From contig CAYJSN010000003.1 of the NCBI GenBank assembly GCA_964373125.1, forward strand, positions 10,480 to 74,479: 64,000 nucleotides of DNA, given 5' to 3'. Both the position numbers and the translations under genes were made by a program. The notes under the pieces are model-generated. The model was not told where the DNA came from. It saw only the letters and a list, made by a program, of their open reading frames with translations, and ran no database searches. Below are positions 6,682-56,902 of the stretch, in pieces; the stretch's first letter is position 1; the number at the start of each line of letters is the position of its first letter. Source of the DNA: an uncultured Nitrosopumilales archaeon (GTDB lineage Archaea > Thermoproteota > Nitrososphaeria > Nitrososphaerales > UBA213).

Positions 6682-6798
6682 GGGCCCGTGGCCTAGTCAG
6701 TTGTGCGTCTTCGTAATTAATCGGGGGGCATGACCTAGCGAGGATATGGCGGGAGCTTGCGGAGCTCCAGGACGAGGGATCGAAGCCCTCCGGGCCCG
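6682..6798 (+). tRNA. tRNA-Arg (anticodon GCG) with a 42-nt intron in the D-loop
   Basis: Acceptor GGGCCCG/CGGGCCC with discriminator G. Anticodon arm GGAGC-TTGCGGA-GCTCC (U33, GCG, G37). T arm GAGGG-ATCGAAG-CCCTC. D arm GCCT...TGGC is interrupted. Removing 6699-6740 gives a 75-nt cloverleaf. No encoded CCA. Confidence 0.8.
6699..6740 (+). other. Non-canonical (D-loop) tRNA intron, relaxed BHB (HBh') fold
   Basis: Central helix CTAG 6693-96 / CTAG 6735-38. 5' bulge TCA 6697-99, 3' bulge CGA 6739-41. 7-bp inner helix 6700-06 / 6728-34. Cutting after the second bulge nucleotide yields D-loop AGUCAGGAUA. Confidence 0.6.
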
Positions 6799-6800
6799 CT
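6779..6800 (+). repeat. Direct repeat copy 1 (3' end of tRNA-Arg; att-like)
   Basis: ATCGAAGCCCTCCGGGCCCGCT, identical to 7336-7357 and 8224-8245. Confidence 0.95.
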
Positions 6801-6859
6801 ATCTAACCAAACGTTCTTCGTGTAAATTTATATACAAACAGCAAGAGTCTTACCTAACT

Positions 6860-7066
6860 ATGACTTCGCAGCCAAGCGTCAAAGATATCATGAAGGAAAT
6901 CAGAGTGATTCGAGGTAAGATAGACAAGTTAGAAAACATTGTTGAAAAAAGACTGATTGGTGAAGGAAAACCCGATAAATATGAAAAGAAGGCCGTTGCT
7001 GAATTTGAGAAGAAAAGAAAGTCTGGCAAACTAAAATTTGTACCTTTGGCTGAGCTAGAGGAATAA
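6860..7066 (+). CDS. Putative antitoxin (aRelB-like coiled-coil protein, 68 aa)
   Basis: ATG 6860; the track ORF start at 6746 would overlap the tRNA. Small, charged and helical. Ends 4 nt before the RelE-family toxin gene. Confidence 0.5.
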   Translation: MTSQPSVKDIMKEIRVIRGKIDKLENIVEKRLIGEGKPDKYEKKAVAEFEKKRKSGKLKFVPLAELEE

Positions 7067-7070
7067 TCAT

Positions 7071-7325
7071 TTGGCATTCAAGGTTCTTATAGAAAAGAGA
7101 GCGGCAAAGCAACTAGACGGATTACCTGTTGATATTAGGAACAGAATTATCAACGCCTTGAAGGAACTTGAAAAGGGATTCTCTGCTAGGCTTGACATAA
7201 ATAAGCTCAAAGGAACCAAGAATCATTATAGAATTAGAGTTGGCGATTATAGAATTCTGTTTGTCTTGGAATCGGATACTACATATGTTTATGATGTTTC
7301 TCATAGAAAGAGCGTGTACAAGTAG
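7071..7325 (+). CDS. RelE/ParE-family type II toxin
   Basis: 84 aa. ...AKQLDGLP..IRNRIINALKEL...LKG..NHYRIRVGDYRILFVLE...YVYDVSHRKSVY is a typical RelE/StbE pattern. Confidence 0.8.
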   Translation: MAFKVLIEKRAAKQLDGLPVDIRNRIINALKELEKGFSARLDINKLKGTKNHYRIRVGDYRILFVLESDTTYVYDVSHRKSVYK

Positions 7326-7335
7326 AGAACGATTG

Positions 7336-7357
7336 ATCGAAGCCCTCCGGGCCCGCT
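7336..7357 (+). repeat. Direct repeat copy 2 (tRNA-Arg 3' end)
   Basis: Perfect 22-nt copy. Upstream ACGATTG versus tRNA ACGAGGG destroys the T-stem, so it is not a tRNA. Followed by the partial copy CACTCCAGCGATCGAA (7358-7373). Confidence 0.95.
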
Positions 7358-7453
7358 CACTCCAGCGATCGAAATGTTAGATGAAACCACAAACAGTGCA
7401 AAGATTCAATCCATGTCAAGAGCAAACAATATATCATGGCATTCTGCTATAAA

Positions 7454-7696
7454 ATGGTGATTAACTTGGAGATGGTGATTAAGGACATTGACGAACAGGG
7501 AAGAGTCATAATTCCAAAGGAATTAAGAAAGAAATACAAGATAAAGGAGAAGGTGATTATAAGATCAGGTGAGGGTAAAATTGAACTCATACCGCTTGAA
7601 GAAAAAGAACTTGCAAAGTTTTTTGATTTGGCTACTGCAGATATCAAGACCGATCTGTCAGATTGGCACAAGATAAGGAAAGAAGTACGGAAATGA
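7454..7696 (+). CDS. AbrB/SpoVT-family antitoxin (VapB-like)
   Basis: DEQGRVIIPKELRKKY swapped-hairpin motif. Start is ambiguous (ATG 7436, 7454 or 7472); 7454 fits a leaderless start about 26 nt after the TATA. Its stop overlaps the VapC start (ATGA). Confidence 0.75.
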   Translation: MVINLEMVIKDIDEQGRVIIPKELRKKYKIKEKVIIRSGEGKIELIPLEEKELAKFFDLATADIKTDLSDWHKIRKEVRK

Positions 7697-8112
7697 GATT
7701 TGTTGACGCAAGTGTTTTTGTTCATGCATTCATCAAGCCTAGGCGAAGACTGAAGCCTCATGAACAGCGAATAAAGAAGAATGCGAAGCATATAGTGAAG
7801 AGAATAGATTCTGGAGAAGAAATTGCTATCAGCACGGTGCATCTGTCAGAAGTTGCCAATATACTGGAGGATTTCATGCCATTCAGGAGCGCTTTAGAGA
7901 TTGTAACATCATTAATATCAAAACCAAGTATTACGCTTCTAAATGTTACTGGCAAGGATTGCATAAAAGCAGTGTTAATAGCACAAACAGATACGATCGG
8001 GTTTACTGACGCAATAGCATGTGTACTCATGTCTGAAAGCAAGACAAGAGAAATCTACTCCTTTGATAGAGACTTTGACAAAGTAAAGGACATTAAGCGT
8101 ATTAGTGAATAA
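7693..8112 (+). CDS. vapC: PIN-domain ribonuclease toxin VapC
   Basis: MRFVDASVF... with conserved acidic residues (D5, E in SEVANILE, D in FTDAIA, D in SFDRDFD). ATG 7693 overlaps the antitoxin stop. Confidence 0.85.
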   Translation: MRFVDASVFVHAFIKPRRRLKPHEQRIKKNAKHIVKRIDSGEEIAISTVHLSEVANILEDFMPFRSALEIVTSLISKPSITLLNVTGKDCIKAVLIAQTDTIGFTDAIACVLMSESKTREIYSFDRDFDKVKDIKRISE

Positions 8113-27927: not shown

Positions 27928-27947
27928 CGGAGATCTCTAGCAGAAGG

Positions 27948-27958
27948 ATTAAATAAAG
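27948..27958 (+). promoter_or_regulatory. TATA-like box upstream of aEF-2 exon 1
   Basis: ATTAAATAAAG centred about 34 nt upstream of ATG 27987. Confidence 0.3.
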
Positions 27959-27986
27959 ATGCCCGATAGAGTTTTGCCCGAGTCTA

Positions 27987-30207
27987 ATGCCGAGGTACAA
28001 GTCAACCACGGAAGTGCTGAAGATCATAGGCAATAAGGACCAGATTCGAATGGTGTGAAAGTAGTTCTTTACACCCGAATAATTTTGGCGTTATTGCCCA
28101 CGTAGATCACGGAAAAACAACCATGAGCGACAGCCTCCTCGCCGCTACGGGCATGATCAGTCCCTCGGTCGCAGGCGAGGCGCTCGCGCTTGACTACATG
28201 GATCTCGAGCAGCAGAGGCAGATGACGATCAAGGCCGCCAACGTGACCCTCTACTACGAGGAGGAGGGCAAGGCGTACGTCATCAACATGATCGATACGC
28301 CGGGGCACATCGACTTTACCGGCAGGGTCACCAGGAGCCTTAGGGCGATCGATGGCGCGTGCGTCGTCTGCGACTCGGTCGAGGGCGTGATGACCCAGAC
28401 CGAGACCGTCACGAGGCAGGCGCTTGAGGAGAGGGTCAGGCCTGTTCTCTACATCAACAAGATCGACCGCCTGGTGAAGGAGCTCCGCCTCACCCCCGAG
28501 AAGATGCAGGAGTGGCTGGCTAGGATAATCGCCGATTTCAACAGGCTCATCGATATCTACGGCGAGCCCGAGTTCAAGGACAAGTGGAAGGTGAACATCC
28601 AGAACGACAGCGTTGCCTTCGGCTCCGCGAAGGACAGATGGGGGTTCACGGCCAGCATCGCTGCAAAGAAGGGCGTCAATTTCAGCGACGTCTACGAAGC
28701 ATATACCACCGGGGATCCGAAGAACCTTGCAGAGAAGATCCCGCTGCACGAGGCTGTCTTGAGCATGGTGGTGAAGCATCATCCACCCCCACACGTGGCA
28801 CAGCGCTACAGGATCCCCAAGATATGGAAGGGCGATCTCAACTCGGATGTTGGAAAGGCCCTGCTGGAGTGCGACGACAAGGGCCCGGCCGTGATGATGG
28901 TCACTACTATAGTAGTTGACCCCCAGGCGGGCCCGGTTGCTGTCGGCAGGCTCTTCTCCGGCACGCTGAGCGACGGCGACCAAGTTTATCTTATCGATTC
29001 CAAGCGAACCGAGCGCGTCCAGTCGGTCAACATGTTCATGGGATCCACGAGGGAGATCGTCAACACGCTCAGCGCAGGAAACATACCGGCGCTGCTCGGG
29101 CTCAAATATGCGAGGTCCGGAGAGACCATCGGCACCATAAAAGAGGTTATACCATTCGAATCGATCAAGTACGTCTCCGAGCCGGTCGTCACGGTCGCAG
29201 TGGAGCCGAAGCATCCTAGGGACCTGCCCAAGCTTGTGGAGACACTGAGGAAGATCAGCATCGAGGACCCCAACCTAGTCGTGAAGATCAACGAGGAGAC
29301 TGGCGAGACTCTCATGTCGGGGATGGGCGTGCTGCACCTTGAGATCGCAACCACCCTGATCCAGCAGGCGGGGCTGGAGATCGTCACCTCGCAGCCGCTC
29401 ATCAACTACCGGGAGACAGTGCGCGCAAGCGCAGGCCCGGTGATGTCCAAGTCTCCGAACAGGCACAACAAGCTCTTCATGCGCATCGAGCCGCTCTCCG
29501 ATGATGTCATCGAGCTCTTGCGGACGGGCAAGATAAACGAGAACATGGACAAGAAGGAGATAGCCAAGGTCCTCAGGGAGAAGGGCTGGGATGCGGACGA
29601 GGCCAAGAACGTTGTTACGATGGAGAGCAACAGCATGCTGGTGGACGCGACGAAAGGTGTGCAGTACCTCCAGGAATCGATGGACTCGATCAAGTCAGGC
29701 TTTACCGACATCATGCTGAGCGGCCCGCTGGCACAGGAACGGTGCAGGGGCCTGAAGCTGATACTCCACCACTTCGTGCCGCACGAGGACCCGGCGCACA
29801 GGACGCTCGCTCAATTGATGCCGGCCAGCAGGAGGGTGATAATGGGGGCCATGCTGAGCGCCAACCCTGTGCTGCTCGAGCCAGTGCTGGGCATCGAGGT
29901 CAAGTGCCCCGCGGAGATGATCGGCAACGTTGCCGGCGTGATCTCCGGAAAGCGCGGCAAGCTCCTGAACATCGACCAGAAGGGAGTGATCGCGATCGTG
30001 CTGGGCGAGGTGCCGGCATCGGAGACGTTCGACCTCTCCGAAATAATGCGCGGCCAGACCGCCGGCAAGGCGATGTGGAACACGCACTTCAAGCTGTGGC
30101 AGGCCGTGCCGCAATCGATGCTGTTGCCGCTGATCGCCGAGATACGGAAGCGCAAGGGCCTGAATCCTGAACCCCCTAGACCTGACGAATTCATAGACAG
30201 CGAGTAA
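27987..30207 (+). CDS. fusA: Translation elongation factor 2 (aEF-2), interrupted; proposed join(27987..28050,28082..30207)
   Basis: Exon 1 encodes MPRYKSTTEVLKIIGNKDQIR, then hits TGA/TAG/TAA. The remainder (NFGVIAHVDHGKTT, DTPGH, NKID, HEDPAHR ... to 30207) is in the +1 frame with no start codon before the P-loop. The track ORF start at 28123 lies inside the P-loop. Confidence 0.85.
28051..28081 (+). other. 31-nt insert in aEF-2 with hBHBh'-like fold (candidate mRNA intron)
   Basis: Outer helices 28029-36/28091-98 and 28040-44/28084-88. Central 4-bp helix 28045-48/28076-79. Bulges AAT 28049-51 and TAAT 28080-83. Inner hairpin 28052-61/28067-75. Excision restores frame and consensus. Confidence 0.6.
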
Positions 30208-30241: not shown

Positions 30242-30673
30242 GTGAATGCAGTAGTTATCCAAGCAGGTCTCGCAGCAGCACTAATCGTCGCGAGCATCTT
30301 TGTCTTTATGCCGGTAGAGAAAGCAGGCACGGTACACAGAATCATACAAGGCACTCAGCTAAATAATGTTCCAGCCGCATTAATCAACTGCTCAGCCGGT
30401 TTGCTCGGTGACACTCTTATCGTAACATCAGACAGGGATTTCATAGTACATCTGAATGTAGTTAACGAGTCGGGTGGTACGCTCATTCTGACAATATCTG
30501 ATGGTGCTGGCGGTGCAGCTGATCTGGCAGTAACTGTTGATCCTCTCTTGAGCTTTTCAGCCACCCATGCATACGAGGGTGGCGTTACAGTAACATTCTC
30601 AGGTGATGCAAACACTCTAGACGGATGTACAACTGTAATTACAGAGGGCGGAGGAACTGCGAGCATAACTTGA
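30242..30673 (+). CDS. Membrane-anchored/secreted hypothetical protein (paralogue A)
   Basis: 143 aa. N-terminal hydrophobic helix followed by the shared motif VEKAGTVHRIIQGTQL. Confidence 0.5.
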   Translation: MNAVVIQAGLAAALIVASIFVFMPVEKAGTVHRIIQGTQLNNVPAALINCSAGLLGDTLIVTSDRDFIVHLNVVNESGGTLILTISDGAGGAADLAVTVDPLLSFSATHAYEGGVTVTFSGDANTLDGCTTVITEGGGTASIT

Positions 30674-30683
30674 GTGGCCTGAG

Positions 30684-31109
30684 ATGAACAAACTGATTAT
30701 TCCAGCGCTAATGGGCATGGCAGTATTGGCTGCGGGAATCCTAGCATTCACATCGGTAGAAGAGGCAGGCACCGTGCATACGAGTATACAAGGCACTCAG
30801 TTAAGCAAGGCCGGAGCAAGGGCGGCGGCACAGTTCTCTAATGACTTGAGCACGAACTCGATAACTATAACGTCAACACGTGACTTTGTGGTATATTGTT
30901 CGATTTCAGAAGATAATAAGGACGCTGGTACCTTTCGGGTAAGTGATGGTGTAGAAAGCGAAGACTACGATCTGGTTGGCACCATTTCTTTGAGCATAGT
31001 TTGGGCGGCGAATGCAGGCGAAACAATTACGGTGGGCAACGCCAACAAGGCTTACGATGGTCTCTGTACTGCAATAACACAAGCTGATGGTACAGTAACA
31101 TTCGGGTAG
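30684..31109 (+). CDS. Membrane-anchored/secreted hypothetical protein (paralogue B)
   Basis: 141 aa. Same architecture and motif (VEEAGTVHTSIQGTQL). Tandem to paralogue A, followed by a T5 tract at 31121-31125. Confidence 0.5.
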   Translation: MNKLIIPALMGMAVLAAGILAFTSVEEAGTVHTSIQGTQLSKAGARAAAQFSNDLSTNSITITSTRDFVVYCSISEDNKDAGTFRVSDGVESEDYDLVGTISLSIVWAANAGETITVGNANKAYDGLCTAITQADGTVTFG

Positions 31110-36279: not shown

Positions 36280-36726
36280 TCACTTTGCTACCTGGATGAA
36301 CTTGGACGGGAAGAGCTGCTTCGACTCCTCCTCGGCGAGCCCCTCGAACTCCAGCCAGATCTCGCTTCCGGCCTTGAACCTTCCTGTTAACTGGGTCGCT
36401 AGGTTGACGATGAACTCATTCTCGGCTGAGACCTTGGCCTCAGAGATGAAGGTCCTTTGGCTCTTCCTCACTATGCTGCCCCCCACAGTCTGCCTAAGGA
36501 ACTCCTCCACAGCCGACCTGACCTCGTCGCTACATTCAACAACGTACATGCCGAGGCCGCTCATCGGCTCCTTGTCAAAGGGAACCCCGCCCCTGAACCA
36601 GAAGACGCTGAAGTACGACGATTCAGAGAACCCGCACCGTATCTCCCAGTGAACCAGCTTCCCTACAGGATACGGCGTAGCCTTGACCTCCTCGGGGGTC
36701 AGGTGCCAGTAGAGCGCCCGTACCAT
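36280..36726 (-). CDS. Hypothetical protein (148 aa)
   Basis: Start moved to ATG 36726 (MVRALYWHLTPEEV...). The upstream 122 residues of the track ORF are Arg/Pro/Gly-rich and overlap the neighbouring regulator gene. Confidence 0.45.
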   Translation of the reverse strand: MVRALYWHLTPEEVKATPYPVGKLVHWEIRCGFSESSYFSVFWFRGGVPFDKEPMSGLGMYVVECSDEVRSAVEEFLRQTVGGSIVRKSQRTFISEAKVSAENEFIVNLATQLTGRFKAGSEIWLEFEGLAEEESKQLFPSKFIQVAK

Positions 36727-36818
36727 GGCCACCAAATGATGGTTTGGGCTCTTAATATGTTTGGACTGCCCGATGGCAGGAAGCCTGACTAGAAAAATAA
36801 AAGAATCGCGCCCCGCGG

Positions 36819-37226
36819 TCAGGGCGTGAGGCCGTTGTAGGCGGAGCGGCGTTCGTCCTCGCCGTTGTGGCCGCTGCCCTCGCTCTGGTCCGTCGCGTGC
36901 ATCATGGCTATCAGCCGCGCAAGTATCTCCTTCAGGATTATGCCCTCCTTCGTGACCGAGAGGCCGCCCTTGGTCACGTCTATGAAGCCCTTCTTGGAGA
37001 GTTCGGTGACGCGCTTCATGGCCTGGTAGTAGTCGAAGCCGAGCGTCCTTGCCACCTGGTAGACCTTCAGCTTCGGGCTCATCGTGACGCACTGGAGGAT
37101 GCAGAAGTTCTGCACGTAGGACGGCCTGCGCTTCATGCTCCTTGCCACGTCGAGCAGCTCGATGTCGAGGTGGGTCTTCTCTTCCATGTCCATATTATCC
37201 AGCCGGGAGATATTATTTGGCATCAA
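36819..37226 (-). CDS. Winged-helix transcriptional regulator, tentative
   Basis: 135 aa. ...KLKVYQVARTLGFDYYQAMKRVTELSKKGFIDVTKGGLSVTKEG... looks like an HTH plus wing. Confidence 0.5.
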   Translation of the reverse strand: MMPNNISRLDNMDMEEKTHLDIELLDVARSMKRRPSYVQNFCILQCVTMSPKLKVYQVARTLGFDYYQAMKRVTELSKKGFIDVTKGGLSVTKEGIILKEILARLIAMMHATDQSEGSGHNGEDERRSAYNGLTP

Positions 37227-37302
37227 ATAATAATTAATGGCACATATTAATTAACTTTTGGTATATAAAATATACTGGGAAATAATAAATCCCGAATGAG
37301 GG

Positions 37303-39402
37303 CTACTGCGCCGTGACGACGGTTCCTTCGGGGCCGATCGAGAACATGTAGACCGAATCTACGTTCGCGTTCTCGAATATGTCGGCATCGTGGGTGATGA
37401 TGATTATCTGCGATAACGGTCCCAGACCCTCCCTGAAGGCCTCGGTTATTATGCTCACCAGTCGTTGTCTTCGCTCCTCGTCAAGGTGCGTTGTGGGCTC
37501 ATCGAGGATCACGAAGTCCACACTCCCGTGGCCCATCACATATGCCATCGCGAGCCTGAGCGCAAGCGCTATGGCGACCTTCTCCCCCCCACTGAGCGAG
37601 CTCATGTCTATAGCGCCCCTGGGCCCGTAGCACGTTATCTCCACATCCCTGCGCTTCTCCGTGAGCTCCAGCCTAGAGACATTGACGCCGAACATGCTGA
37701 TGTACTCCGAGCCCTTCTGGGAGATGATCCTGAGCGCCCACGACCTAAGGCTCATCGCGACTGACCCGTCCCTGTTGAAGACACCCTCTCTTATCCCCTC
37801 CAGCAGCCTGACATAGGCGTAGGCGCTCTTCAGCTCCTCCAAGGCCTTTGAAAGCGTATCTATATCCATCCTTGCACGTTCGTTTATCGCAGTGAACCTT
37901 CCGATATCTCTTTCAAGCATCTTCTCCTTGCTGACAAGTTCGTCGTGCATGCTCTGCTTTTCATCGTACTCCTTCCGGTCAAAGCTGGCCACCTCCTTGC
38001 GGAGCCTGCCGATCCTGTTTACAAGCGCGTGCGAGTAGTCATCGATCACGAGCTTTTCGGGGTCGTGAGCATCCACGACCATTTCGGGCATGCTACCGAT
38101 CTCCTTGTTCTTCTTCCGTATCTCCTCCCTGATCCTAGCCACATCCTCGCTGCCGCGCATCCCGGCATCTCTCAGGGACTTGATGGCGGCCTTCGCCAGA
38201 CTCTGCAACTCCAAGAGCTTGTTCTCATCATTTTTAAGTTCGCTTAGACTGGTCTTCTTCTTTTGCAGGTCCTTCTCAATAGTCGACAGGTCGTCGCGTA
38301 TGTGTTCCGGGTCGTACTTCAGTTTGGTCTTGGAGCCTTTAACCTCGGCGCCGCAGACCGGGCACTTGCCGTCGACCGGCTTCAGGTACTCTGCACACTC
38401 CAGAAGACCGTTCAGCCTGCCCAGCGCACTTTCGCTTTTCTCTACGCTCTCTTCTAGCTTCTCGATCTTCTTCCTTGTCGGCTCCAGCTTCGTCTCCACC
38501 TCCGATATCAGCGAGGCCTGCTCCAAGTTAGCGGTGGCGGTACCGAGCCGGTCCTCCAGCTCCAGCAGCTCGTTACTCAGCGTCTCCTTCATTTCGACGG
38601 ACTTTCTCCTAACGTACTCGAGCAGGTCGGACTCCTGCTCCTCCAGCTCCTGCGACTTGAGGCTCAGGTGCTCCAGCACGTTGAGCCTCTGCTTGATCTT
38701 GCTTGTCTGCTCGCTCAGGCCCAGTAGCCTGCTCTTCATTTTGTCGAGCTCGGCCTGCGATTCTTCTAGGTCTTTCCTGGCATCGAAAATCTTCTGCTTC
38801 ACGGTCTCGATGTCCTGGTCGTCGTAGCCGGTCATCTTCCTAAGCCTCTCCCTGAAGAGCGTGATGAGCCTGCCCATGCTCTCGAAGGCCCGATCGAGCC
38901 GCTCTATCCCGATCAGCGCGTTGATCAGCTCCTTGAACTCCCTAGGCTTGTTCTCCAGGATCGCGTCCAGCTCGCCCTGCTGCACAACCGCGGCGACCCT
39001 CAGCTTCTCATAGTCTAGGCCGATCAGGTTGCCTGCCTCCACGCTCATCGCCTCGCCCATCGTCCTACGCTCGCCGTACCCGAGGATTCTGGGGCCTGCC
39101 TCGGTGATCTCTTCTAGTTTTGCCAGTGTCAGCGAGCCTCTTGCATCGAGCGTCCTCGTTGCCTGGTATCGCTTCGAGTCCATCGTGAACGTGAGTGCCA
39201 CCTTGGAGCCCTCGGAACCGCGGCGCACAAGGTTCCTGTTCTGCCCCCTAGTGTGCTGGCCGTAGAGCGCGAAGGTTATCGCGTCTATGACCGATGACTT
39301 GCCGGAGCCGTTCCTGCCGATGAAGATCGTGACGCCGCGGTCGAACTTCAGCAGTGTCTCCCTGTGGGATACAAAGTTCTCGAGCTCGATCTTCTCAAGC
39401 AT
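37303..39402 (-). CDS. rad50: DNA double-strand break repair ATPase Rad50
   Basis: 699 aa from ATG 39402 (MLEKIELENFVSH...). Walker A GRNGSGKSS, zinc hook CPVCG mid-protein, signature LSGGEKVAIALALRLA, Walker B FVILDEPT. Overlaps mre11 by 8 nt. Confidence 0.88.
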   Translation of the reverse strand: MLEKIELENFVSHRETLLKFDRGVTIFIGRNGSGKSSVIDAITFALYGQHTRGQNRNLVRRGSEGSKVALTFTMDSKRYQATRTLDARGSLTLAKLEEITEAGPRILGYGERRTMGEAMSVEAGNLIGLDYEKLRVAAVVQQGELDAILENKPREFKELINALIGIERLDRAFESMGRLITLFRERLRKMTGYDDQDIETVKQKIFDARKDLEESQAELDKMKSRLLGLSEQTSKIKQRLNVLEHLSLKSQELEEQESDLLEYVRRKSVEMKETLSNELLELEDRLGTATANLEQASLISEVETKLEPTRKKIEKLEESVEKSESALGRLNGLLECAEYLKPVDGKCPVCGAEVKGSKTKLKYDPEHIRDDLSTIEKDLQKKKTSLSELKNDENKLLELQSLAKAAIKSLRDAGMRGSEDVARIREEIRKKNKEIGSMPEMVVDAHDPEKLVIDDYSHALVNRIGRLRKEVASFDRKEYDEKQSMHDELVSKEKMLERDIGRFTAINERARMDIDTLSKALEELKSAYAYVRLLEGIREGVFNRDGSVAMSLRSWALRIISQKGSEYISMFGVNVSRLELTEKRRDVEITCYGPRGAIDMSSLSGGEKVAIALALRLAMAYVMGHGSVDFVILDEPTTHLDEERRQRLVSIITEAFREGLGPLSQIIIITHDADIFENANVDSVYMFSIGPEGTVVTAQ

Positions 39403-40558
39403 CGCTGCGCCCTCCTTTCGATTTGGACTTTTCGTAGACCTGCCAGGCCAGCTCCAAGGCCTCATCAATCTCCCCGCGCTCCAGCGGCGGCAGCAAATCA
39501 TTGACAGCGAACCTAGATTCGTCCTCGCTGCCCAACTCTTTGCTGGCAAGCTCGAGCAGCTTTGTGGTGATATCGCCGGGCTTTTCTTCCAGCAAAGTGT
39601 AGCCGCCGGGCTCGTCGATCACGTCCCACCTGCTGTGCAGCATGATGGTGGCAAGTTTGGAGACCAGGTCTGCGACCCGCCTAGAATCGACCTCCTTGCC
39701 GCTTACTGTCAAATGTAGCACAGGCTTCCTCTGCATCTTTTGCACGCTTTCCCTGAGCTCGTCCAGCCTTGCGGCGAGTTCGTCATACTTCACCGAGACA
39801 GAGATCTGTGGCCTGATGTCCAGCTTCTGCCATTGCGCGCTGGCCTCCTTCCCGGAGAGATCCACTATGTAGAACCCCTTCTCGGCCTCGCCGGCCGCCT
39901 CTCTCACCGCTTCGGACGGTGTTATCTCGATCGAGCCCGGATAGACCAGCGGCCCGCCGAGGTGGTCGAACCTGTGGGTGCTCCTGTCGTGGTAGTGACC
40001 CATCGCGTAGTAGGTGAAGTTCTGCGGCAGATCGTTCGAGCCAATCTCTCCAGCGTACTTGTTTATGTCGAGCAGTCCTTCGTGCAGGATCAACACCCTG
40101 TGGCCGCTGAACTCCTTGGCCTTCTGGTCGACCTCCCTCAGCCTAACAATAAGATCCTCGATCTCGCTACGCCTGTACTTGTCGAAGCCCACGAAGAGCG
40201 TGTTATTGAACTCGTGCAGATCCTCGCCATTCTTGAGGTAGGTTGCAAAACCCAAGTTGTGGAAGGTCCATGAGACGGGTACGCCCCTCACTCTGCTCAC
40301 GTCGTGCTCCCCGAGGACGAAGAAGACGCGTATGTTCTTCTCCTTCAGCTTCTTCAGCTGATCTCCTAGCTTCACTATCGCCCTGCCGGGCGGCTTCGGC
40401 GAGTCGAAGATATCGCCCGCGAGTATCACGGCCCTGACGCCCTCCCTGATCGAGATGTCGATTGCCTGCTCGAAGGCGTTGTAGATGTCCTTTTCCCTCT
40501 CCTCGAGGTTGAACTGCGAGTAACCAAGGTGGATGTCGGAGAGGTGAGCAACCAGCAT
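39395..40558 (-). CDS. mre11: DNA double-strand break repair nuclease Mre11
   Basis: MLVAHLSDIHLG (motif I), GDIFD, LGEHD, and MGHYH phosphoesterase motifs. ATG 40558 is preferred over the track start 40594, which overlaps herA. Confidence 0.85.
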   Translation of the reverse strand: MLVAHLSDIHLGYSQFNLEEREKDIYNAFEQAIDISIREGVRAVILAGDIFDSPKPPGRAIVKLGDQLKKLKEKNIRVFFVLGEHDVSRVRGVPVSWTFHNLGFATYLKNGEDLHEFNNTLFVGFDKYRRSEIEDLIVRLREVDQKAKEFSGHRVLILHEGLLDINKYAGEIGSNDLPQNFTYYAMGHYHDRSTHRFDHLGGPLVYPGSIEITPSEAVREAAGEAEKGFYIVDLSGKEASAQWQKLDIRPQISVSVKYDELAARLDELRESVQKMQRKPVLHLTVSGKEVDSRRVADLVSKLATIMLHSRWDVIDEPGGYTLLEEKPGDITTKLLELASKELGSEDESRFAVNDLLPPLERGEIDEALELAWQVYEKSKSKGGRSDA

Positions 40559-40568
40559 GGATGACCAA

Positions 40569-42107
40569 CTAGTCTTTGAGGTATTCTCTTTCAATCACTG
40601 CCTGTGTCGATTCTTTCGAGTCTTCCCTGATCTTGCGCATCTGACGCCACTGCTTGACGGCCCGCTGATCCGCGCCGGTCTTCTTCTCCAGCACCTGATC
40701 TATACGCACGAAGGTGGGCAGGTTCACCCACTGGCCGACCAAGATGGCGTCGCCGGGGTTTAGCGCCGGCAGCTGCTCCACTATCTCCTTGCTCAGGGCC
40801 TCGCTCGCGGCCGCTGCCTGCGCCTGGTCGTCCTGCTGCACCATCTTCATGACGGCCAGGGAGCCCATCTGGCTGAGAATGTTGGGATCTATGCTTCTCG
40901 GCCTTTGCGAAACTATGACCAGGCCCAGGCCGAACTTCCGCCCCTCCCTAGCCACCTTTCCGGCTATGTACTTTGTATCGGTCTCTTCGTCCCTGCTGAT
41001 GAACACGTGCGCTTCCTCCAGCACAACCAGCACGGGCGCGGTGAACCTTGGAGCTTTCTTGTCTTCCTCGCCGCCTTTCGCCCTAGTCATCTTCGATGCG
41101 CGTTTCCTGTCGTATAGTAGCTCCTCCAGATAGAACCCGACCGCGATATCGGCCTGGCGATCCGTCAACTCGATTAGGTTTACCACGTTCACCTTTCCGT
41201 TCTTGATCAGCGCGGTGGGGTCGCTGACGCCAGCATCTAGTATGCTCTTGAGTCGCTTCCTTGCGAAATCGATCTTGTCCTGCACCCTCTCTGCTGCTTC
41301 CCTGTATGTCTTTTCGCTTACACGCTCGTTCACCTTTGTGTATAATGTGTCCCAGAAACCCTCGCCGTGCCTGACCGTGGCTTCTTTGAAGGCCTCGTTG
41401 AGGACGGTCCGCTGCTTGTCGGCGCCTTTCCTTATCTCCATGACATCGGCGAATTTATCGAACTCCAAGTACCGCGGGTTTATCTTGGCGTCCATCACGT
41501 TTATGCCGTCTATGTTCAGCAGGGAATAATCGTCGTGGTAATCGAATATCACCATCGTGCCTCCGACTTTTGCCATCTGCTTTGCCAGCAGGGACACGAG
41601 GTTGCTCTTTCCCATCCCGGTCATCGCTAGTATAGCAAGATGCCTTGAGACCATCATGTCCATGTTCGCCCTCACCTCGACCTTGCCGTTCCTGAGCAGT
41701 GCCCCCACCCTGATCCATTCCTCGCCGTCGGGAGCAAAGACGCCGCCGAGATCCTCTCCGCCCGCTTCAGATATCTCCTTACCTGGCAGTGGTGGCACGG
41801 CCGGGATGATCGCCTTTCCGTTCTGGAGCTGGTCCAAGTAGCCCAGCACCCTCACTCTTGCCCTGTAGCTCTTATCGCGGAGATTTTCCTCTGCCACTTT
41901 CTTGCTCTCCAAGGCTTCGCTGTAATTCCGGATATCTTTCCCCAAGGCGTCGCTCACTATCATGGAGCTCTCTACCAGTCCCAGGATCTTCCCGTTGTCG
42001 CTGTTGATTATAACATACTCGCCAGCGCTCACCGGCCTGCTAGCCTCGAACATAATCTCATGAGGCTTTGATTCGCCGACAACTATGCCTATCTCCTTGG
42101 TGAGCAC
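40569..42107 (-). CDS. herA: HerA hexameric DNA helicase/translocase
   Basis: 512 aa. N-terminal HAS-barrel-like region, Walker A TGMGKSN, Walker B VLVVLEEAH. The TATA-like TTTTATA lies about 35 nt upstream. Confidence 0.9.
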   Translation of the reverse strand: MLTKEIGIVVGESKPHEIMFEASRPVSAGEYVIINSDNGKILGLVESSMIVSDALGKDIRNYSEALESKKVAEENLRDKSYRARVRVLGYLDQLQNGKAIIPAVPPLPGKEISEAGGEDLGGVFAPDGEEWIRVGALLRNGKVEVRANMDMMVSRHLAILAMTGMGKSNLVSLLAKQMAKVGGTMVIFDYHDDYSLLNIDGINVMDAKINPRYLEFDKFADVMEIRKGADKQRTVLNEAFKEATVRHGEGFWDTLYTKVNERVSEKTYREAAERVQDKIDFARKRLKSILDAGVSDPTALIKNGKVNVVNLIELTDRQADIAVGFYLEELLYDRKRASKMTRAKGGEEDKKAPRFTAPVLVVLEEAHVFISRDEETDTKYIAGKVAREGRKFGLGLVIVSQRPRSIDPNILSQMGSLAVMKMVQQDDQAQAAAASEALSKEIVEQLPALNPGDAILVGQWVNLPTFVRIDQVLEKKTGADQRAVKQWRQMRKIREDSKESTQAVIEREYLKD

Positions 42108-42157
42108 CTCTTCCTGCCTCCCTACTCAATCACAGTGGGACGGGTATAAAAGAATAG

Positions 42158-42604
42158 TTAAGGTTTACCTAGTAAAACTTCTGATCCATCAAACTTATAG
42201 CTGGATAAAATAGTCGAAAGTCTTTCCCTAAGCATAACTTCATCTTCTGGTGAGAACTTTACCGCTTCTCTCTGCCCATAGTACTTTCGTGCCGCAGCTT
42301 CTCCTATTACCGCCTCGAGGTTAAACCGGTGACGAACATGAAATTTAGCACCGCTACTAAAGATTATAGCATATTTCCACTCATGATCATACAATCTTTT
42401 CGACTCGTTTTGATCATCCTCAACTAAATCTTCAAAAATTAACATCCCCGCAACTCTACCCAGAAATCTTCCAGGTTCATCTTGCTTAACTATTTGAAGA
42501 AGCAGAGGTTCGCCTTTCTCTATAGAAGGTCGTTCGTCCAAGAAAAACTTCTTTACTTGAAAGATTTTGTCAAGGTACATCTTCCTGATGTTTAAACGCC
42601 ACAT
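42158..42604 (-). CDS. AT-rich hypothetical protein inserted between nurA and herA (PUA/ASCH/EVE-like fold suspected)
   Basis: 148 aa intact ORF. A spot count of one 60-nt line gives about 35% GC against about 50-60% in herA/nurA lines. Only 6 nt separate it from the nurA stop. Fold guess is based on the pattern MWRLNIRK...GEPLLLQIVK...GRVAGMLIFE and is weak. Confidence 0.55.
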   Translation of the reverse strand: MWRLNIRKMYLDKIFQVKKFFLDERPSIEKGEPLLLQIVKQDEPGRFLGRVAGMLIFEDLVEDDQNESKRLYDHEWKYAIIFSSGAKFHVRHRFNLEAVIGEAAARKYYGQREAVKFSPEDEVMLRERLSTILSSYKFDGSEVLLGKP

Positions 42605-42610
42605 GAGTTT

Positions 42611-43456
42611 TCATCTGAGCACTTCCCTAGCGCCGATCTCGTTCTTCAGCCCGTAGATGCCGGCCAGCCTCTCTATGTCGTCGTCGCTGACCAGCGCGGT
42701 CTTGTGCGCCAGTTTGAGGACGTACGGATAACCGGAGACGCTTCCGTATGTGATCCGATCGAGGATGTTTTTTACCTCGTCTTCGCCGACCTCCCCCGGG
42801 ATCTCGAGCTTCACGACCGGGGTATAGTCGCTGAGCCTGGCATAAATGAAGGTAACGGGCTCGGCATGGACCCTCACGCGGTGAGGCTTGCTGTAGCCGG
42901 CCTCCCTGCTCACGCGGCCGAAGTAGTAGATATCGCCCATCCTGCCGTTCATCTTGCCCAGAATCTCGGTGCTGTCAGACGACTTGGCCACAAAGACCAC
43001 GTTGGAGTGCCTGCCGATGAGTCCGGCTAGGCTCTTCAGTGCGTGAGAATCGGGGCTCGCGCCAACGAATCTGGAGGTCATGGCGCCGTCTATCAGCACC
43101 AGGTCAATATCATCTGCGGCCTTCTGCGCCACGTCCGTCTCAAGCTCCATCGATCTTGCCTCAAGCCAGCTCTGACCTATCCTTTCTATGCCGTCGGCAA
43201 AGTCCTTCGAGAGTATCTTTCCGTCGCTGCCCACGCACACCGCGTCCACGACGTAGAGGTGGAAGCCCTGAAATTGCTGCCTGTTGTAGCTGCTGTCAAC
43301 TCCCCCGAGGACGGATTTTTTGGTCCTAGGCGAATAGCCCACCCAGAGCTCTCTCGCGCGGTCGAGGATCTTTTTGTTCTTCGAGTCGGTATCTGAAAGC
43401 GCTGCCATCCTATCCTCGCGCTTCTTTATCGCGTCCAAGTACACATCGTGGAGCAT
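42611..43456 (-). CDS. nurA: NurA 5'-3' nuclease
   Basis: 281 aa. GGVDSSYNRQ and LVLIDGAM motifs of the NurA/RNase H-like fold. First gene of the herA-mre11-rad50 operon. Confidence 0.75.
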   Translation of the reverse strand: MLHDVYLDAIKKREDRMAALSDTDSKNKKILDRARELWVGYSPRTKKSVLGGVDSSYNRQQFQGFHLYVVDAVCVGSDGKILSKDFADGIERIGQSWLEARSMELETDVAQKAADDIDLVLIDGAMTSRFVGASPDSHALKSLAGLIGRHSNVVFVAKSSDSTEILGKMNGRMGDIYYFGRVSREAGYSKPHRVRVHAEPVTFIYARLSDYTPVVKLEIPGEVGEDEVKNILDRITYGSVSGYPYVLKLAHKTALVSDDDIERLAGIYGLKNEIGAREVLR

Positions 43457-45050: not shown

Positions 45051-46694
45051 TTGTCCAAGAATAGCAAGCCGGCCAGTTTGTCTAGGAAGAGCAAGCCGGC
45101 CAGCAGCGCCAAGAAGTTCATAATCATAGGCGTCATAGCCGCGCTGGTAGCATCGACCTTTGCCGTGCTCTACAGGCCGGGTGCCCCGCAGAGTGAGGAT
45201 GAGATGAAGGCGCTGGGGCTCTTCTGCGGTTCCGGCGTGGCCATGTCCAACAGGTACATCCAGGAGTTCGTGATCCCGACCGAATGCGCAGAGCCGGTGG
45301 GCATAACCGTCGGCCCCGACGGAACGGTGTGGTTCGCCGAATCCGGCGCCAGAAAGATCGGAAGGTTCGACCCGGCAACGGAGGAGTTCAAGGAATACAC
45401 CCTGCCCGGCACGCAGGAGAGGGAGAAGGTGGCGCCGGTCGCGTCGATCTGGTCGCTCAAGTTCGACGAAGCGGGCAGCCTCTGGTTCCCCGACGTGGTG
45501 ACAAACGCCATCTGGAAGTTCGACCCTGCCTCCGGCAATTTTGAGAGGTACCACATACCCACCACGTCGCAGTTCGGAACGTCATACCCGATAAACTTCG
45601 AGTTCAGCGACGGCAAGCTGTGGTTCAGCGAGATCTACGGCAAGAATATCGGAGTCCTCGACCCGGCGGAGGCAAGGCACGCAACCGCCAACGGGATAAC
45701 CGAGATCCCCGCAATGGTGGAGCCAGAGACGCTGGGACCGCTGGCCCTAGACAGTGACGGCAATGTGTGGTTCACCGCCCTCACATACCCGGCAATCGGA
45801 CAGCTCGTTAAACTTGACCCGGATGCTGACGTTCTCACCACCTACAAGATGCCGGATGGCGTGGCGTCCCCCGTCGGGATAGTTCCTGACGGCAAAGGCA
45901 GCCTATGGATAAACGACCACGGCACCAGCATGATCCTCAAGTTCAACCCGGTAACGAACGATACAGTAACCTATGCCACGTCGCTGCCGCAGAGGAGCAC
46001 CTCGATCGGGCTCTACGAGCAGTGCCTTGCGCGCGCGGGCGGCTCGCCACCTACATGCGGCGGGTTCCCGGTATCGCTGCCCTACTGGAACACCATCGAC
46101 AGCAGGGGAAGGGTCTGGTTCAACGAGCACCAGGGCAACTCGCTCGGCGTCTTCGACGAGTCCACGATGACGATGCTCGAGTACTTCGTCCCGACGCAGA
46201 ACCCGCGCTGGGGCGCCTGCGAGGGCTACAGCGAGCCCTGCGGCATAGCCAACCCGCTGCAGTTCACGATCGCCCCCGACGGCAGGGTGTGGTTCACGGA
46301 ATGGAGCGAGGGCAGGATAGGCGTGCTGAACCCGAACCTGCCGCTGCCGGTCTCGCTGGAAGTGGTGAACGATGATCGGCCGATGATGGTTGAGCAAGGT
46401 GCAGAACTCAACCTTGACATAGCGATTACAGCGCACGAAGATCTTGATTCCGGGGTGGAGATGCGCCTATCCGGCACGATGACGCCCAGCGGCCAGCTCT
46501 CAAACATGCTCGTGAGCTTCAGCGAGCCGATCGTTGCATTCGACGGGCCGTCCACGAAGACCGTCAACCTGAAGCTCGTGCCCACTGACTTGGAGCCAGG
46601 CGACTACAGGATCACGGTCAGCGCCAAGTACAAAGAGGTAACCTACTCAAAGATGGTCGAGATCACGGTGGAGCCGGCCAAGGCAGAGCTCTAG
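45051..46694 (+). CDS. Membrane-anchored beta-propeller protein, Vgb (streptogramin lyase)-like repeats, plus a C-terminal Ig-like domain
   Basis: Repeats such as GITVGPDGTVWFAESGARKIGRFDP, LDSDGNVWFT, DSRGRVWFNE, APDGRVWFTEW. N-terminal anchor FIIIGVIAALVASTFAVL. Start uncertain: TTG 45051 is proposed, the track gives 44985. Confidence 0.65.
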   Translation: MSKNSKPASLSRKSKPASSAKKFIIIGVIAALVASTFAVLYRPGAPQSEDEMKALGLFCGSGVAMSNRYIQEFVIPTECAEPVGITVGPDGTVWFAESGARKIGRFDPATEEFKEYTLPGTQEREKVAPVASIWSLKFDEAGSLWFPDVVTNAIWKFDPASGNFERYHIPTTSQFGTSYPINFEFSDGKLWFSEIYGKNIGVLDPAEARHATANGITEIPAMVEPETLGPLALDSDGNVWFTALTYPAIGQLVKLDPDADVLTTYKMPDGVASPVGIVPDGKGSLWINDHGTSMILKFNPVTNDTVTYATSLPQRSTSIGLYEQCLARAGGSPPTCGGFPVSLPYWNTIDSRGRVWFNEHQGNSLGVFDESTMTMLEYFVPTQNPRWGACEGYSEPCGIANPLQFTIAPDGRVWFTEWSEGRIGVLNPNLPLPVSLEVVNDDRPMMVEQGAELNLDIAITAHEDLDSGVEMRLSGTMTPSGQLSNMLVSFSEPIVAFDGPSTKTVNLKLVPTDLEPGDYRITVSAKYKEVTYSKMVEITVEPAKAEL

Positions 46695-55927: not shown

Positions 55928-56902
55928 TTGGCTATCGAGATAAAAAGTCCGATACTTCTCGTTGGTGTCGGTGGCGTTGGAGCATCGCTCGCTGCGGCGG
56001 CCAAGAAGAATCTCGGTGTAAACTCGCTCCTTATAAGCAACGACGCGAACGACCTCAACCATCCCGGCTGTGAGAGCGTCTTCGTTGACGCCAAGCCCTT
56101 ACTGAACCCGTCCCCGAACAGCATCCGAAGCGCGCTTCTCAGGGTGCAGGAGTCCATCATGTTCAAGCTGCACTGCAGCTCCACGGTGGTGGTTGTGGGA
56201 AACCTAGCCGGCAGGGCAGGCGTTGGCATAGCTCCGATGATAACAAGGATGGCGAAGCAGGCGAAGAAGAACGTTGCCTCGTTCGTCATAATGCCCTTCA
56301 AGTTCGAGAAGAACAAGCTCTTCGGCGCCGGTGTTGCACTGAAGCGGCTGAAAGAATCTTCCGACTGCTTGGTGATCGTTGACAACGATGCGTTCCTCTT
56401 CAACAACCCGGACCTGACGCCGGAGGCATGCTACGGGATAATCAACGACGCGATGCTCGAAGCTCTCGGCTCCTTGGTGAAGGGCTCGCTGACGGAGGAC
56501 GTCAACGTCCTGAGCACGAGCAGGGCATCCCCCAATGGCGCCGAGTCGGCTCTCAAGGACTCGATAAGGATGCTATACAGCGAGGTCGACCCGGAGAACG
56601 TCAAGCGGGCAATGATCTACGTGATCGGGGGCGACAGGGTGCCGGTCGGCGTGCTGAACACGATGGTCAACCATGTCCACACCATACTCGGGAAGAGCGG
56701 CGTCGAAGTAGGACTTGCGCTTTCGCCATCGTCCTCTGCCCAAGGCGTCAGGGTTCTGCTGCTGGCATCCGTGCTGGAGCAGACCAGGTTCGACAGTTAC
56801 GACCCGCTGAGCATCATCCCGGCCGACTCTGTTCTGGACTGGGATGAGATCGAGTGCGACCTAGCGCTGGAGCTGGATACAAGCATCCCCAGGATCGACT
56901 GA
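55928..56902 (+). CDS. Divergent FtsZ/tubulin-like protein
   Basis: 324 aa (TTG start). LVGVGGVGASLA (T1-like), GNLAGRAGVGIAPMITRMAK in place of GGGTGTGAAPV, and IMPFKFEKNK...LVIVDNDAFL collinear with FtsZ. Confidence 0.6.
   Translation: MAIEIKSPILLVGVGGVGASLAAAAKKNLGVNSLLISNDANDLNHPGCESVFVDAKPLLNPSPNSIRSALLRVQESIMFKLHCSSTVVVVGNLAGRAGVGIAPMITRMAKQAKKNVASFVIMPFKFEKNKLFGAGVALKRLKESSDCLVIVDNDAFLFNNPDLTPEACYGIINDAMLEALGSLVKGSLTEDVNVLSTSRASPNGAESALKDSIRMLYSEVDPENVKRAMIYVIGGDRVPVGVLNTMVNHVHTILGKSGVEVGLALSPSSSAQGVRVLLLASVLEQTRFDSYDPLSIIPADSVLDWDEIECDLALELDTSIPRID

Follow-up and report, generated by a model that had tools for sequence, protein, structure and literature searches.

A candidate bulge-helix-bulge mini-intron in the elongation factor aEF-2 gene of an uncultured Nitrosopumilales archaeon and its relatives

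Reading frames of the aEF-2 gene

The stretch of DNA analysed here, referred to below as the window, comprises 64,000 nucleotides (nt) from an uncultured Nitrosopumilales archaeon (assembly GCA_964373125.1, contig CAYJSN010000003.1, positions 10,480 to 74,479). It contains a gene for archaeal translation elongation factor 2 (aEF-2, below also EF-2) that is interrupted close to its 5' end by a frame-breaking insert of 31 nt. The original prediction, made from the sequence, was that this insert is an mRNA intron of the bulge-helix-bulge (BHB) type. The locus is organized as follows.

27949-27957, + strand: TATA-box-like candidate promoter element (TTAAATAAA), about 30 nt 5' of the exon-1 ATG, read from the sequence
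27987-28050, + strand: exon 1 of aEF-2, 21 codons (MPRYKSTTEVLKIIGNKDQIR) and the first base of the Asn22 codon
28051-28081, + strand: predicted BHB mini-intron, 31 nt, with in-frame TGA at 28056-58 (frame repair, same-site inserts, covariance-model match)
28082-30207, + strand: exon 2 of aEF-2, beginning with bases 2 and 3 of the Asn22 codon (N-FGVIAHVDHGKTT...) and ending with the stop codon

The open reading frame (ORF) opened by the ATG at 27987 encodes MPRYKSTTEVLKIIGNKDQIRMV and terminates at TGA 28056-58; once the exon-1 codons are passed, the unspliced frame continues as M-V-stop. The body of EF-2, ending at 30207, lies in the +1 frame relative to this ATG. The upstream stop of the +1 frame is TAG 28027-29, and no ATG, GTG or TTG was found in the window sequence among its codons from 28030 to 28122. 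The first listed start of this frame, at 28123 (MSDSLL..., 694 amino acids, aa), is situated 3' of the P-loop AHVDHGKTT. Each of these coordinates, from which the original prediction had started, checked out in the sequence. So did its claim that deletion of 28051-28081 restores a contiguous P-loop: the junction CGA A-AT TTT GGC is then translated as R-N-F-G-V-I-A-H-V-D-H-G-K-T-T, and ...DQIR-NFGVIAHVDHGKTT is restored. Excision of 28050-28080 is equivalent, as it yields an identical mRNA.

The predicted spliced EF-2 consists of 729 aa. Its N-terminus is MPRYK..., with DQIR followed by the tryptic peptide NFGVIAHVDHGK and with DQIRNFGVIAHVDHGK as the junction-spanning peptide; the predicted junction in the spliced mRNA is ...GACCAGATTCGAA-ATTTTGG... 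(28050/28082). The spliced N-terminus can be aligned without gaps over the junction to the solved aEF-2 structures 8hl1 and 5h7j, and the exon-2 product matches proteins with full EF-2 domain sets.

Secondary structure of the insert

Folding of positions 28020-28110 by RNAfold produced a helix-bulge-helix-bulge-helix as both the minimum-energy and the centroid structure, with outer helices 28029-36/28091-98 and 28040-44/28084-88 and central helix 28045-48/28076-79. The energy of this fold is -31.3 kcal/mol, compared to -15.3 +/- 2.8 kcal/mol for shuffled sequences (z = -5.8), and none of 200 shuffles was as stable. The helices and bulges that had been drawn by hand in the original prediction are reproduced in the minimum-energy structure, in which the inner hairpin is formed by 28052-59/28068-75. 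The elements of this structure are listed below.

28029-28044, + strand: outer helices between the two exons, 5' strand, with GGCAAUAA at 28029-36 and CCAGA at 28040-44; supported by compensatory changes
28045-28048, + strand: 5' strand UUCG of the central helix of 4 base pairs (bp)
28049-28051, + strand: 5' bulge AAU, predicted cut after 28050
28052-28075, + strand: inner (intron-internal) hairpin of 8 bp (28052-59/28068-75) with an 8-nt loop
28076-28079, + strand: 3' strand CGAA of the central 4-bp helix
28080-28083, + strand: 3' bulge UAAU, predicted cut after 28081
28084-28098, + strand: outer helices between the two exons, 3' strand, with UUUGG at 28084-88 and UUAUUGCC at 28091-98

A BHB motif consists of a 4-bp central helix flanked by one bulge of about 3 nt on either strand, and the window presents it in a relaxed form: the 3' bulge comprises 4 nt in the minimum-energy fold, which a U28083-A28044 pair would shorten to 3 nt. 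Each bulge is located 3' of its own strand of the central helix, which is the polarity of the 37/38 tRNA intron. In pre-tRNA, as known from the 37/38 intron and its anticodon-intron pair, bulges in this arrangement comprise 3 nt and are cut between their second and third base. By analogy with this rule, the EF-2 transcript would be cut between 28050 and 28051 and between 28081 and 28082.

Same-site inserts in related EF-2 loci

For comparison, 80 Nitrososphaeria EF-2 loci were used, one genome per species, which makes 81 loci with the window. Their aa identity to the window is 69-85%, and 72-85% among those that bear an insert. An insert at the same codon was found in 25 of the 80 related loci (L001-L019, L025, L026, L028, and L030-L032), i.e., 26 of 81 with the window, and the other 55 are exactly contiguous at this codon (...IR-N(F/I/L)G...). 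Inserts occur in Candidatus (Ca.) Nitrosocaldus, Ca. Nitrosothermus, and Ca. Nitrosomirales and in Nitrososphaeria from groundwater, hot springs and peat; insert-free loci belong to Nitrosopumilaceae, Nitrosotalea, Nitrosotenuis, a clade of metagenome-assembled genomes (MAGs) of Nitrososphaerales/Nitrososphaerota, and others.

The inserts are 16, 30, 31, 32, 37, 42, 45, 49 or 63 nt long, so that the residues 0, 1 and 2 modulo 3 are all represented. Every insert (26/26) contains an in-frame stop 3-7 codons past Arg21, and in 19 cases it is the third codon; such early stops may be selected because they rapidly abort translation of unspliced transcripts, or they may simply follow from the sequence of the hairpin. 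The flanks of the inserts are conserved (AUUCGA-A(A/U)GG ... CCCGAAU-(A/G/U)AU); their interior sequence is variable, yet a hairpin is always formed. All 26 loci have AAU or AAA as the 5' bulge, and the second base of the 3' bulge, an intronic position, is A, G or U in the relatives. The central helix is UUCG/CGAA in 24 loci and CAGG/CCUG in L017 and L019. A canonical 3-4-3 motif was observed in L019 and in L025, L026, L030, and L031, the latter four having a 3-nt 3' bulge (UAA or UUA) followed by UCUGG, which pairs with CCAGA.

When cuts are placed after the second base of each bulge, all 26 loci yield the sequence R-N-(F/L)-G-V-(I/V)-A-H-V-D-H-G-K-T-T and ORFs of 727-747 aa; the proposal that this cut coincides with the frame-restoring junction thus holds well beyond the window. 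In L017 and L019 all four central pairs are changed and the motif is displaced by 1 nt relative to the codons, and the same rule still gives R-N-F-G. The colinear frame of Nitrosocaldus would be N-D-F-G, but the G of its GAU codon occupies position 2 of the 3' bulge and is thus intronic; splicing yields the consensus N-F-G. Taken together, this GAU codon, the shift in L017 and L019, and the canonical bulge in L025, L026, L030, and L031 argue strongly against coincidence.

A covariance model of the element (R1) scored the window insert at 94.3 bits, its sole match in the window, and the 26 loci at 51-97 bits. No second copy of the element was detected by this model in the window or in the loci, its matches being confined to the 5' ends of EF-2 genes, and a dispersed mobile element was ruled out on these grounds.

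Covariation and constraint on the exons

When the 26 sequences are aligned with MAFFT, 86% of the cells of the proposed pairs are paired, a share that drops to 37-51% if the 3' partners are shifted. Eight pairs are changed on both sides, five of them in the inner helix and three in the outer one, and the 43-44 cells with both sides changed compare to 12.7 +/- 4 in shuffled data, a level reached in none of 500 shuffles, these statistics ignoring phylogeny. The outcome was the same with a covariance-model-based alignment. Both procedures align L017 and L019 by sequence, so that the compensatory central helix of these two loci scores as unpaired; it was documented by inspection. The inner helix, in which five of eight pairs change on both sides, varies in length from 2-3 bp to 15 bp among the relatives. 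Compensatory changes in the outer helix include AAU/AUU to AAC/GUU and G.U to A-U or G-C. In the replacement of GGC AAU AAG / GUU AUU GCC by GGC AAC AAG / GUU GUU GCC, a synonymous change in exon 1 offsets an Ile-to-Val change in exon 2.

The duplex between the two exons, calculated for codons 15-21 against codons 22-27, has a mean energy of -15.0 kcal/mol in the 26 insert-bearing loci versus -4.8 kcal/mol in the 55 insert-free ones (Mann-Whitney p = 6e-13, uncorrected for phylogeny). The aa sequence of exon 1 is conserved in the 26 loci despite many synonymous changes, with four codons used for Pro2 and five for Arg3. The ATT-CGA codons, which contribute to the central helix, are fixed in 24 of the 26 loci, whereas other exon-1 codons vary synonymously; in insert-free relatives the corresponding Arg is encoded by AGA, AGG, CGA, CGT or CGC. 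The constraint on the aa sequence, the fixed ATT-CGA codons and the duplex contrast together indicate that exon 1 is translated as part of EF-2 and that the RNA structure is maintained.

The putative promoter element at 27949-27957 is also shared: at the same spacing from the exon-1 ATG, L001-L003 and L008-L014 have GGATTAAATAA(A/T), and L025, L026, and L030-L032 have CTTTTAAAAG. This conserved spacing supports ATG 27987 as the true start. A motif AAGGATTAAATAA(A/T) was observed about 30 nt 5' of the EF-2 start in several lineages (window 27940-27960; L001-L014); it is probably a B recognition element (BRE)/TATA promoter, in which case the 5' leader would be very short.

Gain and loss of the insert

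In a neighbour-joining tree of the 81 EF-2 proteins, which is a midpoint-rooted single-gene tree and indicative only, the insert-bearing lineages are paraphyletic. Nested among them are the insert-free clades Nitrosopumilales with L020; L051 with L067-L076; L021; and L022-L024 with L027 and L029. The simplest reading of this pattern would be that the intron is old and has been precisely lost at least four times. Among intronless loci the best R1 score, 35.9 bits, was obtained for L020:2934-2980 from the insert-free Nitrososphaerales archaeon TH1177. This locus appears to keep the exon complementarity, like a footprint of precise intron loss.

A second insertion site at switch II

Short "EF-2 N-terminal" proteins encoded inside long contigs led to five further loci, in which inserts of 28-35 nt interrupt the switch II motif DTPGH-(V/I)DF of EF-2.

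L083:4286-4323 and L084 (same coordinates): Jordarchaeaceae (Asgard), two samples, 31-nt insert
L087:2891-2925: another contig with a similar EF-2 sequence, 28-nt insert
L085:3663-3699: Nitrososphaeria relative lacking the first intron, 30-nt insert with an in-frame stop
L086:324-365: apparently Aigarchaeota-like by its N-terminal sequence, 35-nt insert
L088:505-540: 29-nt insert

These inserts contain a 4-bp helix and 3-nt bulges with the same polarity as at the first site, and their central helices differ (GGCC/GGCU, GGGC/GCCU, CCGG/CCGG, and ACGU/GCGU). The insertion points lie 2-4 nt apart: after the His codon, within the His codon, or within the Asp codon. Canonical cuts restore DTPGH(V/I)DF(T/S)G in each locus, and the existence of analogous inserts at a second site of the same gene counts in favour of a BHB intron at the first site. 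In L083, genes for the splicing endonuclease EndA, a LigT-like protein and a CCA-adding enzyme were observed within 4 kb.

The tRNA-Arg gene and other genes of the window

The original prediction had also pointed to a D-loop intron in a tRNA-Arg gene of the window, which was recovered by ARAGORN and Rfam upon removal of the insert.

6683-6798, + strand: tRNA-Arg(GCG) gene with a 42-nt D-loop intron at 6699-6740

The unspliced gene scores 25.9 bits with the Rfam tRNA model (gathering score 29) and is not detected by ARAGORN at default settings; with 6699-6740 excised, it is recognized by this program as a clean tRNA-Arg(gcg) of 76 nt. The intron carries a BHB-type motif with central helix CUAG/CUAG, bulges UCA and CGA, and an inner helix of 7 bp. 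It is the only tRNA confirmed in the 64 kb; of the 14 "tRNAs" reported by ARAGORN at a lowered threshold, all except 6683-6798 were treated as noise. This split gene indicates that the host splices non-canonical substrates, which fits the (alpha-beta)2 type of EndA, an enzyme of relaxed specificity that has been placed in Thaumarchaeota (PMC5829648).

The neighbouring genes form an ordinary thaumarchaeal set: radical-SAM enzymes of the futalosine pathway, a PurP-like protein, herA-rad50-nurA, plastocyanin-like proteins, class I LysRS, Elp3, and TruD. Several further features were noted.

6746-8112: two type II toxin-antitoxin pairs
30242-30673 and 30684-31109, + strand: two tandem paralogous ORFs of about 142 aa directly 3' of EF-2, with a hydrophobic N-terminal segment and no Pfam match
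36280-43456, - strand: DNA-repair genes, with rad50 at 37303-39549, herA at 40569-42107, and nurA at 42611-43456
36280-37092, - strand: ORF at the expected position of mre11, no Pfam match
55928-56902, + strand: ORF whose match to the Tubulin/FtsZ GTPase domain is limited to profile positions 90-185 of 190

The ORF at 55928-56902 presumably encodes a divergent FtsZ-like protein of the kind known from Thaumarchaeota; it is possible that its N-terminus is cut off by another hidden insert.

Public EF-2 entries and literature

All public EF-2 entries of insert-bearing lineages that were seen (P0121-P0155 and P0241-P0268) have artefactual N-termini. The product of the window itself (P0121, NCBI) is a 694-aa protein starting with MSDSLL... 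and lacking the P-loop; the entry of Ca. Nitrosocaldus cavascurensis (SPC34446.1) comprises 695 aa with an artefactual N-terminus; the RefSeq multispecies entry WP_269459694.1 (705 aa) begins with MAHVDHGKTT; and further entries of 719-727 aa start with exon 1 in the wrong frame, e.g., MAIKTRFEWCEGKTFRPNNFG. Many public EF-2 proteins of these lineages lack the P-loop. As EF-2 is a standard phylogenetic marker, wrong N-termini affect alignments as well as annotation.

No description of a BHB intron in EF-2 was found in the full-text-searchable literature (subscription-only papers being outside this scope), in agreement with the original prediction, and a study of archaeal EF-2 evolution does not mention introns in this gene (Narrowe et al., 2018). 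Up to 2009 the intron of cbf5 was the sole confirmed spliced protein-coding BHB intron, others being merely predicted (Yokobori et al., 2009, PMC2738675), and no later confirmed case beyond cbf5 was found in the literature searched. In 2009 cbf5 introns were still mistaken for frameshifting by other researchers (PMC2738675).

Interpretation and alternative explanations

We consider it highly probable that the 31-nt insert is a genuine BHB mRNA intron excised between 28050 and 28051 and between 28081 and 28082. The pre-mRNA would be transcribed from the putative promoter about 30 nt 5' of ATG 27987, and exon-1 codons 15-21 would pair with exon-2 codons 22-27 to form the outer helix. With UUCG/CGAA as the 4-bp central helix and the intron as the inner hairpin, the transcript would assume the geometry of the pre-tRNA 37/38 intron. 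EndA, of the broad-specificity (alpha-beta)2 type in this phylum, could then cut at the two positions, and an RtcB-type ligase could join the exons into an mRNA for the 729-aa EF-2 with its beta1 strand and P-loop intact. Translation of the unspliced mRNA would end after 23 residues, at the stop three codons into the intron.

Excision of a BHB intron, the core of the original prediction, fits every test that was run and is the sole reading that fits all of them. The sequence and its fold, the conservation of the insert at one site, the covariation, the constraint on exon pairing and the exact repair of the frame all point in this direction. The intron is very probably a previously undescribed one of the cbf5 type, in a new gene and a new phylum, that has been missed by annotation.

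Some observations weigh against splicing. Owing to the 4-nt 3' bulge, the window motif is a relaxed rather than a canonical BHB, and the minimum-energy fold of L017 has a 1-nt, not a 3-nt, 3' bulge; relaxed BHB forms (hBH / HBh') belong to the definition of the family (PMC5829648). The covariation counts, as mentioned, do not consider phylogeny. Neither EndA nor RtcB nor another clearly split gene was found by Pfam among the approximately 60 ORFs of the window, and the presence of both enzymes in the genome is assumed. The spliced junction GAYCARATTCGAAATYTKGGNGT was looked for as an exact pattern in JGI metagenome contigs, and the hits were limited to one unrelated sequence and one intronless Nitrosopumilales-like gene. 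Public proteins were searched with the spliced N-terminal profile and with the full spliced protein; none from an insert-bearing lineage had a correctly spliced N-terminus, and no product with a correct junction was closer than 88% to any such lineage. The 694-aa product of the window, looked up as an exact match, returned no contig record. As these collections consist mostly of DNA, the absence of spliced copies from them says little.

The motif itself is not rare. Counting both strands of the 64-kb window, a naive BHB scanner found 39 motifs in which the inner and the outer helix have 5 bp or more, as well as 263 "ORF-merging" candidates, at a G+C content of 56%. Bare BHB-like motifs are common by chance in the window, and the fold alone is weak evidence. 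What gives the EF-2 motif its significance is that it coincides with the frame break, together with the comparative data. The scanner motifs that were examined sit in ordinary coding sequence or fold no better than shuffles, and all additional mRNA-intron candidates of the scanner in the window were judged to be chance. The pattern with the longest helices (45819-45930, - strand; outer 11 bp, inner 7 bp), antisense to a gene for a 569-aa beta-propeller protein, was rejected as a chance motif (z = -0.47), as were three further candidates, whose removal unmasked no tRNAs.

If the insert were retained, EF-2 would have to be translated from a downstream or non-canonical start (28123 or another in the +1 frame), the hairpin acting as a 5' regulator and the 23-codon ORF as a leader peptide. 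This would match public annotation, with its 694-aa (MSDSLL...), 705-aa (MAHVDHGKTT...) and 719-727-aa wrong-frame products, and a short upstream ORF whose stop lies beside a stable hairpin does resemble attenuator-type leaders. However, in the window the frame offers no ATG, GTG or TTG from its upstream stop to the P-loop, and initiation at 28123 would remove the GTP-binding loop of an essential GTPase. The supposed leader is, moreover, the EF-2 N-terminus of insert-free relatives and solved structures and is under aa constraint, and the junction gives the consensus in 26/26 loci whatever the length of the insert, which makes retention improbable. The stop soon after the break and the stable hairpin also recall bypassing in phage T4 gene 60, and a ribosome could in principle shift frame or hop over the insert, stimulated by both. 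We consider such recoding highly improbable, as all three length classes modulo 3 occur and the in-frame inserts carry stops, so no single frameshift would work; the gap varies from 16 to 63 nt; and there are no matched take-off and landing codons (CGA...CGA of the window lands out of frame, and L017 and L019 lack the AGG repeat). What covariation keeps is, furthermore, a specific bulge-helix-bulge geometry and not merely a hairpin.

For a lone short insert that breaks a frame in one MAG-like contig, an assembly or sequencing error or a decaying pseudogene copy of EF-2 would be the default reading. It is effectively refuted by the recurrence of the insert in 26 genomes, which stem from different studies and were assembled independently, and in dozens of additional protein clusters, by strong purifying selection on both exons (69-85% aa identity, synonymous variation in exon 1), and by the compensatory evolution of the insert itself. 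Other types of intervening sequence were rejected as well. Group I and group II introns are incompatible with an insert of 16-63 nt, and no Rfam match was obtained at the locus at the gathering threshold or at E <= 1; an intein, as an in-frame coding insert, is excluded by the frame-shifting lengths and in-frame stops.

A wider possibility, which we put forward tentatively and regard as rather unlikely, is that EF-2 is a recurrent and ancient host of tRNA-type introns in TACK and Asgard archaea, that the pre-P-loop site predates the radiation of Nitrososphaeria, with the switch II motif DTPGH-VDF as a second cluster of insertion points, and that the intron is kept as a switch. EF-2 would then be made only after processing by EndA and RtcB, while translation of unspliced transcripts would be aborted at the conserved stop three codons into the intron, coupling translation capacity to tRNA splicing and RNA repair. 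This would be an archaeal counterpart of HAC1/XBP1, and archaeal mRNA splicing would be far commoner than the single case of cbf5.

Comparison with known systems

A BHB intron exists in the pre-mRNA of cbf5 (pseudouridine synthase) in Crenarchaeota (Watanabe, 2002; Yoshinari, 2006; Yokobori et al., 2009, PMC2738675). Like the EF-2 insert, it is a short BHB-flanked insert in a protein-coding gene, and its removal by the tRNA splicing endonuclease has been shown experimentally, whereas splicing of EF-2 is predicted from sequence. Both introns are patchily distributed among related lineages, are linked to hetero-oligomeric EndA, and have been missed by annotation or called frameshifts. Unlike that of cbf5, the EF-2 intron resides in the gene of an essential, highly expressed GTPase of Nitrososphaeria/Thaumarchaeota, 63 nt from the start codon and just 5' of the P-loop; it seems to be much more deeply conserved, being present in several order-level lineages with several apparent losses, and the gene has a second, independent insertion region.

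A second gene family after cbf5 would mean that the activity of the tRNA-splicing machinery on mRNAs extends further than has been assumed, in this case on the transcript of a universally conserved translation GTPase, in another phylum and across several deep lineages. The existence of a second site, in Asgard and other archaea, points to a class of mini-introns that are hidden in conserved genes and could be searched for. As cultures of Nitrosocaldus exist, both splicing and a regulatory role are directly testable; the inserts of the cultured Ca. Nitrosocaldus cavascurensis, N. islandicus, and N. yellowstonensis are 32-63 nt long.

Non-canonical tRNA introns of TACK archaea (hBH / HBh') share the motif geometry and the predicted cut rule with EF-2, and their relaxed bulges are tolerated by (alpha-beta)2 EndA (PMC5829648). 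In contrast to these, the EF-2 substrate is an mRNA, in which the outer helix is made by synonymous or conservative codon choices in two coding exons, so that the structure is constrained jointly with the protein sequence. In the cytoplasmic HAC1/XBP1 splicing of eukaryotes, a small mRNA intron is removed without the spliceosome at stem-loops, by cleavage with IRE1 and joining by tRNA ligase or RtcB. As would be the case in EF-2, removal of this intron shifts the reading frame and switches on a functional protein; the nuclease (IRE1) and the recognition motif are different, and the process is stress-regulated. The HAC1/XBP1 splicing pathway is mentioned in PMC13149111. T4 gene 60 resembles EF-2 in having a short non-coding gap within a coding sequence, a nearby stop and a hairpin, whereas EF-2 differs from it by the lack of matched take-off and landing codons, the variable gap and the conserved bulge geometry.

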